The translations under genes and the position numbers were made by a program. Shown piece by piece: positions 19,536 to 24,375 of a DNA stretch of 64,000 nt; position 1 is the first letter of the stretch, and every line of letters starts with the position of its first letter. Source of the DNA: an uncultured Mycoplasmatota bacterium. GTDB taxonomy: Bacteria; Bacillota_I; Bacilli_A; RF39; UBA660. The DNA lies in the NCBI GenBank assembly GCA_945949305.1, contig CAMFED010000002.1:14605-78604 (forward strand), read 5' to 3'. The notes under the pieces are model-generated. The model was given only the letters and a program-made list of their open reading frames with translations. It ran no database searches and was not told where the DNA came from.

Positions 19536-19720
19536 GTAAGTTTTACAATTAAAGTAATAAGATTCATTACTAAGCAACTAGCTAGCATCATAACAGTCCA
19601 AGTAAGACCTTCTCCCCAATCTTTATGGATTGCTTTAATAATCCAATTGACAAAAGAAAATAGCCAGAAAATAGCAACTAAAATCCAAATTACGAATAAG
19701 ATAATCTCAGGAACACTCAT
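19523..19720 (-). CDS. small membrane protein
   Basis: Two hydrophobic helices. Confidence 0.3.
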   Translation of the reverse strand: MSVPEIILFVIWILVAIFWLFSFVNWIIKAIHKDWGEGLTWTVMMLASCLVMNLITLIVKLTKVG

Positions 19721-20132
19721 TTTGGATCTCCTCTCTTACTTTCATAAGTAAAAGTCCTAAATTATTTTCTCCAGTACCATTACAAACACCCCAATAGCAA
19801 TCTCCCCAAGTATTACCTTCTTCAAGGTAAGCATCTCCAGTATCAAGAAGTTTCTGCCTTAACTCAGGAATAGCAAATTTCTTGCGCAATCCTTCAAGCA
19901 TAATATCCTTTTTGACGTATTCCCAATCAGGTCTAATCTTAACCTTTCGACCTAATCGTTTTGCTTGGCCTGGTGTAGGAGCATTAGCAATTTCCAAAAG
20001 ATCTTCCTGATTAGTCGCTTTCATCGCTTGAAAGTAGTGTTCCATTGTAGGGAACACTACTCCATTTACTGTGAAAGGACTCAATTCATAATTGCTTAAA
20101 AAAGAATATTTGTTTCTAAAACTATCAATCAT
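19707..20132 (-). CDS. NADAR (YbiA-like, DUF1768) domain protein
   Basis: PF..MEHYFQA.K ... GDCYWG pattern typical of the NADAR family. Confidence 0.6.
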   Translation of the reverse strand: MIDSFRNKYSFLSNYELSPFTVNGVVFPTMEHYFQAMKATNQEDLLEIANAPTPGQAKRLGRKVKIRPDWEYVKKDIMLEGLRKKFAIPELRQKLLDTGDAYLEEGNTWGDCYWGVCNGTGENNLGLLLMKVREEIQNECS

Positions 20133-20135
20133 AAA

Positions 20136-20936
20136 TTAAAACTCCCAACACGTCCCCTGAGAAGGACCAACTCGGCTGCACATTGGCATAGGTCTAACCT
20201 TATGAATATTTCTCTTATGACGTTCCATAATATTTTTATAAACTTCATAATTTTCAGGAGGAGTGCCAGTCTCAAGGAAGGTATCAAGTACCTCATAAGT
20301 AAAACCAAGATTATCTTCATCAGTTTTACCGCTCAGGCCATCTTCAGGAGCTTTATCAATAAACTTAGCCGGAATGCCAAGAGCATAACCAATAGCTTTC
20401 ACAGCATGAACAGTATAATCACTCAAAGGAGAAAAATCGCCCGCAGAATCACCAAACTTAGTAGAATAACCTACAAAGTCCTCAGAAGCATTACAAGTAT
20501 TAACAACTCGACCATGAAGCATACCTGCGATTGCATAAAGAACAGACATACGAATTCTTGCTGGGCTGTTGGATGTAACCACCGAATTTTCTCTTACATC
20601 ATCAAAAGGAAAAGCATTGTCGAAACTTTCATAAAAAGTATCACAAATCTTACCAATATTTACTTCAATAGTCTGAATCTGAAGATACTGACCAACTTCA
20701 TGCGCAATATCAATATCATGCTGCTTACCCTGTGGCATATAGACACCGATAACCTTATCTTTACCAAGAGCTTCAACACAAAGCTTCGCTGCGACAGTGC
20801 TGTCCTTGCCGCCACTCAGCCCAATAATCGCTTTACAATCAGGACCATTCTCTACGAAATAATTCTTAATCCAGTCTTTAATGTGATTAATTTCAACATT
20901 AATATCTTCAGCAATAGGATAAATAAGAGTACGCAT
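20136..20936 (-). CDS. nadE: NH3-dependent NAD+ synthetase
   Basis: SGGKDS PP-loop motif with NadE-like length and architecture. Confidence 0.8.
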   Translation of the reverse strand: MRTLIYPIAEDINVEINHIKDWIKNYFVENGPDCKAIIGLSGGKDSTVAAKLCVEALGKDKVIGVYMPQGKQHDIDIAHEVGQYLQIQTIEVNIGKICDTFYESFDNAFPFDDVRENSVVTSNSPARIRMSVLYAIAGMLHGRVVNTCNASEDFVGYSTKFGDSAGDFSPLSDYTVHAVKAIGYALGIPAKFIDKAPEDGLSGKTDEDNLGFTYEVLDTFLETGTPPENYEVYKNIMERHKRNIHKVRPMPMCSRVGPSQGTCWEF

Positions 20937-20937
20937 A

Positions 20938-21432
20938 TTACTTTTCCTCCAATCTATAAATGTAAATATTTTTGTTAGTAAGAATATTTTGAATCATAGT
21001 ACGAATAATTTCCCAATTGGCACCACCACGATCACTACCAATTTTATAAGGAAAAGCAATCGAAGTACCATCCGCGAGTTTAGAGTTCAATTCCTCAAGA
21101 CAAGAAGCAAATGCTTCATAATTGGTATATCGTTTACCGTCATAACCAAATTTATCTTGAGCATACATATTCGCAATCGTATGACCATCATTTGTCTTAA
21201 CAAGCTGTGTTTTTCCAAGAGGAGCAGGATTATTAATAAAATACATCTGATAAGCCTGCGCTACTTCTGGCCATTTATCTTTAATCTGTTTAGCAACACC
21301 AGATCCCATTGTTTTCTGACAATTTACTTGATGGCAAATTACACAGCCATGATTATCAAGTAAATCGCCATTTAATTCGTGATAAGTATTCATATTATTC
21401 TCCTTCTGGATACATATTCTCTCTAACTTCAT
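20938..21432 (-). CDS. macro domain (ADP-ribose binding/processing) protein
   Basis: HQVNCQ ... MGSGVAKQI macrodomain signature. Confidence 0.7.
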   Translation of the reverse strand: MKLERICIQKENNMNTYHELNGDLLDNHGCVICHQVNCQKTMGSGVAKQIKDKWPEVAQAYQMYFINNPAPLGKTQLVKTNDGHTIANMYAQDKFGYDGKRYTNYEAFASCLEELNSKLADGTSIAFPYKIGSDRGGANWEIIRTMIQNILTNKNIYIYRLEEK

Positions 21433-22909: not shown

Positions 22910-22941
22910 TTTATTTATTCCTTTCTTAACTTTCTATAAAT

Positions 22942-22996
22942 ATTATATCATATTTTTATAAAAAAATCAAAGGAGTAATATTTAATTACTCCTTTG
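22942..22996 (-). promoter_or_regulatory. terminator hairpin (22969-22996) overlapping the -35 of a TTGATT-N17-TATAAT promoter (22942-22970)
   Basis: Hairpin aaaggagtaat...attactccttt. The revcomp of 22965-22970 gives TTGATT and the revcomp of 22942-22947 gives TATAAT. Confidence 0.5.
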
Positions 22997-23007
22997 ATTT
23001 TATCATA

Positions 23008-23844
23008 TTAACCTTCAAGAATTTTTACACGAGGATCATTTTCATCTCGCCAGATGCTATTAGTTGTAAAAATCTGTGCAATTTCATTTCCGTAATAAAT
23101 ATTTCCAGAAGTAATTGTCTTTTCACAATGAGTTACATAAAGATAAATGCTGCGCGCTCCAAGCTCTTTAAGAGCTTTAGCCGCATAATAGAAAGTACCA
23201 CCTTTTGAACAAATATCATCAATAATAAGAATATTCTTATCCTTGACAATCTCTTTATTCATAACCTCAAGACCGAGAATATTACCCGTTTCCCAATCAC
23301 GTTTTTTGATACCAAAAGCATAAGGAAAATCCAAAAGAGAAGAATAACGCTTCATAGCTCCTTCATCAGGATAAAAAGTAATAAATTTATTCATTACTTC
23401 TTTGCGGCTATATCCTTCATTGCCGCCAGTAAGAAGATATACTTGATTAACTGCTTCTCTAATATAATTAGTAGGTTCAATAACAGTACATCTATCAAGA
23501 AGGGCTGCGGCCACATTAGAATGAACATCAAGTACCATAACACTCAAAAAATTAAGAGAGTTAATAATATCGCAGAAATACTTCAAAGTAAAAGTATCGC
23601 TTTCTTTCTTAACTCTATCCATGCGAGCATTAGGAACATAAGGCATATAAAGAATAGGACGGCAATTATGTTCTGCACATTTCTTTGCTAAGCAAATCAG
23701 AGTAAAAAGCTCTGCATCATTATCATAATACCATTCAATCCTAGTACAGCCGGTCAAATCCATACCATTCAGATTGAGAGTGCCATCGGGGAAAGTCTGA
23801 TTAGTATAGTGAATTTCAAATTCATAACCTTTAATACGGAACAT
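23008..23844 (-). CDS. ribose-phosphate pyrophosphokinase family (PRPP synthetase, or its ADPR-pyrophosphokinase homologue Adps)
   Basis: Prs-like PRPP-binding loop. Confidence 0.75.
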   Translation of the reverse strand: MFRIKGYEFEIHYTNQTFPDGTLNLNGMDLTGCTRIEWYYDNDAELFTLICLAKKCAEHNCRPILYMPYVPNARMDRVKKESDTFTLKYFCDIINSLNFLSVMVLDVHSNVAAALLDRCTVIEPTNYIREAVNQVYLLTGGNEGYSRKEVMNKFITFYPDEGAMKRYSSLLDFPYAFGIKKRDWETGNILGLEVMNKEIVKDKNILIIDDICSKGGTFYYAAKALKELGARSIYLYVTHCEKTITSGNIYYGNEIAQIFTTNSIWRDENDPRVKILEG

Positions 23845-24375
23845 TTAAATTACCTCCACTTGACAAGATTTCATAACGTCCAATGCTTCCATATGCTTTT
23901 GAGGAGTGGTGCCAGCGCAGCAATCTGCTTTAACATAAATAGGAATATCAGTAGTTGCTTTAAGAATTAAAGCATTAGAAACAACACAAATATCAGTACA
24001 AACACCAACAAGTTCAATACTGATACATTTATCTTTAGAAAAATAAGTATTAGTCATAATAAGACTATCGTTTGCTAAATTTACATAGCCAAATTTATTC
24101 TTATAAAGAATATACTGTGCATAAGGGGCAAGCTGAGGTACAATTTCCCAACCGTCTGTGTCTTCAATACAATGAACGACAGGAAGATAATGGCCTTCAA
24201 GAGTATCTAAATAATTTTCTTTATGTGTATCTTTTGTAAAAAGAACAGTATCTCCATTTTTGAGATATTCTTTAATACGCTCTTCAATTCGAGGGACAAT
24301 TTGCTGAGCTTCTTTACTACCAACTCGCCCAGTAACGAAATCATTCTGCATATCAATAACAATTAACATTCTCAT
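23845..24375 (-). CDS. isochorismatase-family nicotinamidase (PncA-like)
   Basis: IDMQNDF ... GVCTDICV catalytic-Cys motif. Confidence 0.7.
   Translation of the reverse strand: MRMLIVIDMQNDFVTGRVGSKEAQQIVPRIEERIKEYLKNGDTVLFTKDTHKENYLDTLEGHYLPVVHCIEDTDGWEIVPQLAPYAQYILYKNKFGYVNLANDSLIMTNTYFSKDKCISIELVGVCTDICVVSNALILKATTDIPIYVKADCCAGTTPQKHMEALDVMKSCQVEVI

Follow-up and report, generated by a model that had tools for sequence, protein, structure and literature searches.

A 64,000-nucleotide stretch of DNA deposited under an uncultured Mycoplasmatota bacterium (assembly GCA_945949305.1, contig CAMFED010000002.1, positions 14,605 to 78,604; hereafter the window) carries six tightly packed genes for nicotinamide adenine dinucleotide (NAD+) metabolism, in a two-unit operon of a gut phage whose host is probably among the Clostridia. 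Two of the six genes are relatives of NARP1, the phage pathway of Adps and Namat that restores NAD+ from ADP-ribose once bacterial immunity has consumed it (Osterman et al. 2024, 10.1101/2024.02.11.579819). We propose, with a probability of roughly 0.6, that the module is a NARP1-type pathway re-routed through the deamidated branch of NAD+ synthesis, that is, through nicotinate and nicotinate adenine dinucleotide (NaAD). The family and clade memberships, the substitutions in the substrate pocket of the transferase, the gene linkage and the operon structure on which this proposal builds are direct observations. All six open reading frames (ORFs) lie on the minus strand in the same orientation. 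The initial annotation had placed six NAD+-related genes here, and its calls hold at the coordinates below, with Pfam, NCBIfam and PHROGs backing each assignment:

19707–20132, minus strand: NADAR protein, 141 aa (PF08719, 96.7 bits; TIGR02464, 94 bits)
20136–20936, minus strand: NadE, NH3-dependent NAD synthetase, 266 aa (PF02540, 182 bits; TIGR00552, 172 bits against a cutoff of 63.65)
20938–21432, minus strand: macro-domain protein, 164 aa (PF01661, 26.2 bits; phrog_335, 140 bits)
21395–22909, minus strand: Namat-clade transferase, 504 aa (NAPRTase and NAMPT_N domains; NF006629, 447 bits; phrog_448)
23008–23844, minus strand: Adps-clade protein of the Prs family, 278 aa (Pribosyltran/Pribosyl_synth; phrog_619, 227 bits)
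23845–24375, minus strand: PncA, nicotinamidase of the isochorismatase family, 176 aa (PF00857, 95.9 bits)

Is the Prs-like protein a genuine Prs or an Adps? With the Adps of phage SpβL1, whose activity has been validated biochemically, it shares 34% identity (133 bits, E 5e-42); against any genuine Prs in the PDB it reaches at most 51 bits. It scores 242.8 bits on a hidden Markov model (HMM) of canonical Adps, built from 43 Adps proteins taken from canonical NARP1 loci only, versus 78.5 bits on the Prs model TIGR01251, which has a cutoff of 113; indeed, it falls far under the cutoff of every Prs equivalog model. In a neighbor-joining (NJ) tree, 86 Adps-like proteins are split at 98% bootstrap from three genuine Prs, represented by partial fragments copied from printed alignments, and the window protein nests between the two validated enzymes, grouping with SpβL1 Adps and apart from the Adps of phage Gary. 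Its K180 (GIKKRD) aligns with the catalytic K162 of SpβL1 Adps (GHKQRN). These comparisons place the protein in the Adps clade, and its predicted reaction is ADP-ribose (ADPR) + ATP → ADPR pyrophosphate (ADPR-PP) + AMP. SpβL1 Adps yields no product with ribose-5-phosphate (preprint).

The neighboring Nampt-like protein sits in the Namat clade. It scores 387 bits against SpβL1 Namat (9W5X), 160 against Xcc Nampt and 138–143 against mammalian NAMPT. A 153-taxon NJ tree places it inside a clade of Namats from SpβL1, Gary, Felix-like, Staphylococcus and Mycobacterium phages, and this clade is separated from four NARP2-type Nampts with 100% bootstrap. A Foldseek search with its AlphaFold2 model (mean predicted local distance difference test score, pLDDT, 83.6; predicted template modeling score, pTM, 0.85) likewise returns 9W5X as the top match (E 1.7e-47), with NAMPT at about 6e-34. 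The protein keeps the Namat catalytic residues H245, R306 and D308, and in the clamp it retains R40, F392 and the TRD triad. PHROG names were discarded as evidence on this question because PHROG 448 cannot tell Namat from Nampt, the RB43 Nampt being among its matches. The two genes are adjacent, as in NARP1, with a gap of 98 nt. The Prs-like protein does not cluster with genuine Prs, and the pair belongs to the NARP1 family. The initial annotation had raised NARP1 (Adps plus Namat) beside plain Prs-plus-NadV salvage, and had named phylogeny or HMM comparison of the two proteins as a way to decide and a grouping with genuine Prs as the outcome that would speak against NARP1; the clade tests bear out the NARP1 assignment for both proteins.

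The nicotinamide pocket of the transferase departs from that of canonical Namats. Seven residues of SpβL1 Namat contact nicotinamide: F189, R192, D215, A242, R306, D13' and Y15' (PMC12774641). Five are kept in the window protein, and the other two are replaced, D215 by A212 and A242 by S239; close to the pocket, G213 of SpβL1 becomes N210. The alignment of this segment (SFTGTDTIPAIL versus SFYNTATVPAIL) is gap-free. D215 hydrogen-bonds the amide of nicotinamide, and the D215A substitution cuts activity about 8-fold (PMC12774641). The equivalent residue of human NAMPT, D219, also contacts the amide and is a known discriminator between nicotinamide and nicotinate; NaPRTase carries Ser at this position, and D219S is listed as a substrate-affinity switch (PMC4442680, PMC4919578). 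The adenine clamp is changed as well. Its motif, GSxΦxΦxΦTRD, reads GSFTYQYNTRD in SpβL1 and GSF[SFMCLETLDDIDSYFASHTAAPLPKP]TYNPYTRD in the window protein, where a 26-aa insertion splits it; GSF and TRD are kept, and the equivalent of Y396 is ambiguous. The insertion has a pLDDT of 54–58 in the AlphaFold2 model, and no reading of adenine stacking was taken from the model at this low confidence. Judged from its sequence, the transferase is a non-canonical Namat that misses two defining features, one in the pocket and one in the clamp. Its predicted reaction is nicotinate + ADPR-PP → NaAD + PPi.

Insertions also occur elsewhere in the family. Three Namat homologues of 778–822 aa (P0169, P0192 and P0193) have intein-like insertions inside the adenine-clamp motif, located between GSF/GSY and TYQ, with a Cys at the start and SHN|T at the end. 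Four others (P0002, P0030, which represents a 1684-member cluster, P0059 and P0097) share an insertion of ~70–75 aa after RGDSGDPVEII that is absent from the window protein, where the insertion point would be at about residue 317; its carriers are close relatives (up to 94% identical). The Kirov and Felix-like Namats are longer too, at 578 and 608 aa.

Linkage of PncA and NadE to the altered transferase

How common is the altered pocket, and what accompanies it? A search of a 1.84-billion-protein library gave 3,318 family hits, from which the 150 best representatives at 50% identity were used. At the positions equivalent to SpβL1 213, 215 and 242, 92 of these carry G-D-A and about 55 carry x-[A/S]-S; with a single exception, representatives that have Ala or Ser at 215 also have Ser at 242. 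In the NJ tree, the A/S-type sequences form a single clade of 47 taxa (75% bootstrap) nested inside Namat. Neighboring genes within flanks of at most 8 kb were then annotated by iterative HMM search at 184 loci, drawn from IMG/VR, GenBank phages, bacterial genomes and metagenome contigs; P0171, on a short contig, and P0223, whose contig ends just downstream, are uninformative for neighborhood. The gene counts were as follows:

A/S-type loci (n = 131): Adps 124, PncA 122, NadE 122, macro 87, NADAR 9
D/E-type (canonical) loci (n = 51): Adps 44, PncA 0, NadE 0, macro 8, NADAR 3

When at least 3 kb of flank is available on both sides, PncA and NadE occur together in 107 of 111 A/S-type loci and in none of the 39 D-type loci (Fisher p about 8e-32, not corrected for phylogeny). 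Retention is a stronger argument for linkage than this p-value. The association is kept in five or more recurrent arrangements of the genes, in which PncA may come first or last; with partner proteins that have diverged to 33–36% identity; in phage and chromosomal contexts alike; and in divergent members with an intact clamp (P0135, P0151, P0155, P0185 and Phass-1). PncA and NadE are thus near-obligate partners of the A/S-type Namat subclade rather than optional extras, and their presence beside an altered nicotinamide pocket implies a different chemical route. The initial annotation had described the six genes as an unusually complete toolkit against NAD+ depletion. That description overlooks the tie of PncA and NadE to the altered pocket; the macro gene fits the NARP1-AP pathway discussed below. 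PncA is otherwise rare in sequenced phages, being found in 11 of 50,697 records, mostly from uncultured gut phages.

Both partner enzymes keep their catalytic motifs. The best PDB match of PncA is the Pyrococcus horikoshii pyrazinamidase/nicotinamidase 1ILW (E 7.5e-15). The alignment pairs the catalytic residues D8, K94 and C130 and the metal site D49/H51/H68, residue roles that we take from established knowledge of PH999 and PncA. NadE is a single-domain protein with an SGGKDS P-loop. The predicted reactions are nicotinamide → nicotinate + NH3 for PncA and NaAD + NH3 + ATP → NAD+ for NadE.

PncB and NadD are the classical enzymes that join nicotinate, the product of PncA, to NaAD, the substrate of NadE. 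No homologue of NadD, NMNAT, PncB, NadM or NadR is found in the 64-kb window, which is part of a genome of roughly 200 kb, and jackhmmer searches with gp277 and gp281 of Bacillus phage G find no PncB or NadD in the window or in the A/S-type loci. Phage G itself (L154, 200–207.4 kb) has PncA (gp275), PncB (gp277), NadD (gp281) and NadE (gp283) without Adps, and its PncB is unrelated to Namat by BLAST. The phage G locus also encodes a Nudix protein and a KptA-like RNA 2'-phosphotransferase.

Several Clostridia and Elusimicrobia genomes have compact, apparently chromosomal pncA-adps-namat(A/S)-nadE-nrtR operons (L170, 6621–11056; L175, 6690–11120; L183, 6599–11140; also L168 and L138); NUDIX and NrtR_WHD domains confirm the identity of NrtR. 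The best effector for de-repression of NrtR is ADPR, and Clostridium acetobutylicum has an nrtR-pncA-pncB-nadD-nadE operon (PMC2330246). Comparison of the two arrangements indicates that Adps and the variant Namat fill the slot of PncB plus NadD in an ADPR-sensing operon. The nrtR-prs-nadV operons that a 2008 study found puzzling (PMC2330246) probably represent NARP1 in bacteria. In some A/S-type loci (L122, L125–L127 of the KSS subclade, L141 and L035/L036), a gene for a NadM-type adenylyltransferase with a GRFQxxHxGH motif, or for a NadR-like bifunctional protein, lies a few kb away, an indication that these phages mix routes or use alternative ones.

The macro protein may add a further substrate to the pathway. 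A macro protein encoded in NARP1 operons, Adpp, dephosphorylates ADPR-1''-phosphate, the product of aRES defence, and so restores the NARP1 substrate; the resulting pathway has been named NARP1-AP (10.64898/2026.01.28.702374). The validated Adpp of Gary falls in phrog_335 (170.6 bits), as does the macro protein of the window, and the two are only 24% identical (E 9e-10). The window protein finds better matches in BT1257 and in macro domains of the DarG type than in Poa1p (E 0.77). It is a reasonable but unproven candidate for an Adpp, that is, an ADPR-1''-phosphate phosphatase. NADAR, which the initial annotation had counted as part of the toolkit, is not conserved: at 9 of 131 A/S-type loci it was rejected as a core member and is therefore an occasional passenger, though it is co-transcribed with the other genes here.

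The proposed route and its alternatives

For the steps of the module we infer the substrates, the products and an anti-defence role as follows. Provided that it is an Adpp, the macro protein would convert ADPR-1''-phosphate to ADPR, which Adps would pyrophosphorylate to ADPR-PP. From the nicotinamide that NADase effectors set free, PncA would produce nicotinate and NH3 by deamidation. The variant Namat, with its amide-binding Asp replaced by Ala and a neighboring Ala by Ser, would join nicotinate to ADPR-PP to give NaAD and PPi. NadE would then use ATP and NH3 to convert NaAD to NAD+, re-using the ammonia from the PncA step. Adps and the variant Namat would in this way take the place of PncB and NadD in a Preiss-Handler-like pathway that starts at ADPR rather than phosphoribosyl pyrophosphate (PRPP). 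What might a phage gain from the detour? One speculation is that an ADPR-induced NrtR regulon raises the level of host PncA, so that nicotinamide is short-lived and a transferase that uses nicotinate is favored. Another is that the added ATP-driven step renders resynthesis irreversible.

Several points weigh against the deamidated route. The pocket argument is one of homology only: human D219A is listed as a loss of activity, not as a substrate switch, and SpβL1 D215A keeps about one-eighth of its activity (PMC12774641), so an enzyme with Ala at this position could still use nicotinamide weakly. The low confidence with which the clamp insertion is placed makes a preference for ADPR-PP less certain than in short-clamp members. 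Because the A/S type arose once, the p-value for linkage overstates independence, and the association amounts to one event followed by retention. The minority of A/S-type loci with NadM- or NadR-type adenylyltransferases would also fit a route through nicotinate mononucleotide (NaMN). Finally, the proposed pathway would cost an additional ATP compared with NARP1, for a benefit that is so far speculative.

The transferase might instead still make NAD+ from nicotinamide and ADPR-PP, with PncA and NadE boosting host Preiss-Handler flux in parallel. Its membership in the Namat clade, the conservation of the remaining catalytic core and most clamp residues, and the partial activity of SpβL1 D215A (PMC12774641) are all compatible with this arrangement, and S239 could in principle replace D215 as the hydrogen-bond partner of the amide. 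Yet a co-expressed nicotinamidase would consume the transferase's own substrate, and neither the confinement of PncA and NadE to A/S-type loci (122 of 131 versus 0 of 51) nor the joint change of positions 215 and 242 in nearly all cases would be explained; we consider this arrangement unlikely. A classical Preiss-Handler pathway, in which the Prs-like protein makes PRPP, the transferase forms NaMN from nicotinate and PRPP, and host NadD and phage NadE complete the synthesis, would also suit the pocket change. It could also draw on the clamp insertion, which might weaken selectivity for ADPR-PP, on the NadM- and NadR-like adenylyltransferases of some related loci, and on the use of PRPP by Namat in vitro when ADPR-PP is absent (10.1101/2024.02.11.579819). 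It is nevertheless improbable: the Prs-like protein is in the Adps clade, whose SpβL1 member is inert on ribose-5-phosphate (preprint), and A/S-type members with an intact canonical clamp have the same partner genes. Moreover, NadD is found neither in the window nor in most loci, the genuine Preiss-Handler set of phage G has PncB and NadD and no Adps, and the bacterial versions are linked to the ADPR-sensing NrtR.

Plain salvage through nicotinamide mononucleotide (NMN) by Prs and NadV/Nampt, as in NARP2, is what the Pfam and NCBIfam names would suggest, and PHROG 448, which lumps Namat and Nampt, permits it. We regard it as very improbable given the 100% bootstrap separation from NARP2 Nampts, the lack of an Nmnat within the 64-kb window, the scores under the curated cutoffs of the Prs models and the loss of the amide-binding Asp. 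The deamidated NARP1-type route remains the reading that we prefer.

Why would such a route matter? Depletion of NAD+ ranks among the most common results of bacterial immune action, and of the known phage countermeasures NARP1 is the most widespread. Should the route be as proposed, nicotinate + ADPR-PP → NaAD would be a new enzymatic reaction, and the chemistry of NAD rebuilding would prove to be tunable by two pocket residues. The presence of nicotinamidase and NadE genes in gut phages would be explained, and phage counter-defence would be tied to the ADPR-regulated NAD recycling operons of gut anaerobes. Annotation would also benefit: the genes are now labeled Prs, NadV or “cysteine hydrolase,” and anti-defence finders would file the Adps-Namat pair as ordinary NARP1.

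Operon structure and phage context

Apart from the 98-nt gap between Adps and Namat, the genes of the module are separated by very few nucleotides: 0 between PncA and Adps, 1 between Macro and NadE and 3 between NadE and NADAR. The Namat and Macro ORFs overlap as called; the true start of Macro is probably an internal ATG at nt 21393, right after the Namat stop. The transcription block reaches ~24748 upstream, where there is a terminator followed by a promoter, and 19523 downstream. Its further features are:

24715–24748, minus strand: terminator-like hairpin with a 14-bp stem and T run, at the upstream module boundary
24686–24714, minus strand: promoter motif TTGATT-N17-TATAAT with extended −10, upstream of wHTH-PncA-Adps
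24379–24651, minus strand: 90-aa ORF with weak winged-helix (MarR_2/DUF7343) similarity (the winged helix-turn-helix, or wHTH, ORF)
22964–23000, minus strand: perfect 16–17-bp hairpin with a T run in the Adps-Namat gap (dG −24.2 kcal/mol, z = −10)
22942–22970, minus strand: second copy of TTGATT-N17-TATAAT, upstream of Namat-Macro-NadE-NADAR
19523–19720, minus strand: 65-aa hydrophobic (transmembrane, TM) ORF that ends the unit, not conserved
19481–19509, minus strand: further copy of TTGATT-N17-TATAAT, at the downstream module boundary, after the last small ORF

The promoter motif splits the module into two units, wHTH-PncA-Adps and Namat-Macro-NadE-NADAR-TM. At the upstream boundary, the promoter (24714–24686) comes straight after the terminator-like hairpin (24748–24715); in the Adps-Namat gap, the hairpin is a terminator or attenuator, and its 3' arm overlaps the −35 element of the promoter that follows. 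The window has 14 copies of the motif versus 0.21 expected, always on the minus (coding) strand, which makes it very likely that this is the promoter type of the phage itself; a scan for the general sigma-70 consensus gave 35 sites versus 35.5 expected, no excess over chance. The 14 copies lie between 75 and 40074, with none at 40–64 kb, and mostly have a TG-extended −10. A strong hairpin directly precedes at least two of them (24714 and 22970), and the combination looks like a phage-specific early/middle promoter-terminator cassette. The 90-aa ORF is a possible local regulator. Both it and the 65-aa TM ORF were rejected as conserved parts of the module, since they are confined to near-identical relatives. 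An alternative genetic code was excluded as a source of wrong gene calls in the module, which has no in-frame TAG and uses TAA or TGA stops.

Across the Namat gene, the window matches gut-metagenome phage contigs of 44–201 kb in IMG/VR with 99–100% protein identity. Megablast of the region against sequenced phages found no nucleotide-level relatives, so the informative signal comes from protein-level searches only. The module is flanked by genes for an SPFH/flotillin-like protein (15649–17037), two metallophosphoesterases (17085–17651 and 18721–19464), an AAA_33 kinase (17670–18284) and a protein with an RNA-ligase domain (26099–27508). In the loci of the Gary, Staphylococcus, Mycobacterium and Kirov phages, NARP1 likewise has genes of the RNA-repair type nearby.

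Other parts of the window point to recoding. In the 40–64 kb blocks, the share covered by stop-free frames of 100 aa or more rises from about 0.4–0.6 to 0.87–0.99 when TAG is read through, and reading through TGA changes it little. The signal is found at 0–16 kb and 36–64 kb, especially in a stretch of 21–25% GC at 40–52 kb. TAG is probably reassigned (code 15) in part of the phage genome, as in the related gut phage Phass-1. None of the five tRNAs of the window, encoded on the minus strand at 36642–39999 (Cys-GCA, Lys-TTT, Leu-CAA, Leu-TAA and Thr-TGT), is a suppressor. Tandem repeats of in-frame length at 44922–45322 and 50654–50772, with periods of 21 and 12/36 nt and up to 93% matches, are likely to be repetitive protein segments if TAG is recoded.

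Relation to known NAD+ reconstitution systems

The known phage systems for restoring NAD+ differ in their enzymes. NARP2 consists of Nampt and Nmnat (KVP40; 10.1101/2024.02.11.579819), NARP3 of PnuC and NadR (Bas30; PMC13464706), and a further pathway, RyDEP, feeds NARP1 (10.64898/2026.05.28.727677). The module shares with NARP2 and NARP3 the aim of restoring NAD+ during infection; unlike in those systems, the transferase is outside the Nampt clade and the window has no adenylyltransferase of the Nmnat or NadR type. NARP3 was ruled out as a relative, PnuC and NadR being unrelated to the module. In the literature searched, up to August 2026, we found no paper that joins ADPR-PP with NaAD or nicotinate, or NARP1 with a nicotinamidase or NadE; the Phass-1 genome paper has “nicotinamidase” as an annotation only.

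The closest relative is NARP1 itself. As in NARP1, an Adps-clade kinase lies beside a Namat-clade transferase, and SpβL1 Namat, for which structures are available (9W5X/9W5W; PMC12774641), is the best match in both sequence and fold. In contrast to NARP1, the pocket carries the equivalents of D215A, A242S and G213N, the clamp motif is interrupted by 26 aa, and PncA and NadE, absent from all 51 canonical loci, are near-obligate. NARP1-AP of Vibrio phage Gary, which consists of Adps, the Adpp macro phosphatase and Namat (10.64898/2026.01.28.702374), is similar in having a macro gene of phrog_335 within the operon. It differs in frequency: about 66% of A/S-type loci contain a macro gene, versus the 15% reported for NARP1 phages. 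By descent, the module is a member of the NARP1 family, in a widespread version that is undescribed in the literature searched and has a predicted new reaction. We lean slightly toward regarding it as a fourth phage route, “deamido-NARP1,” in which a nicotinate:ADPR-PP transferase would make NaAD directly, fed by phage PncA and finished by phage NadE. The four-gene unit itself is common among gut phages; in Clostridia and Elusimicrobia it also forms an apparently chromosomal operon linked to the ADPR-sensing NrtR, where it would be an unrecognized ADPR-recycling substitute for PncB plus NadD. The likeness to the Preiss-Handler pathway is in the ends, with PncA first and NadE last, and in the NrtR linkage of the bacterial versions; the difference is in the middle, where Adps and the variant Namat stand instead of PncB and NadD and the predicted donor is ADPR-PP rather than PRPP.

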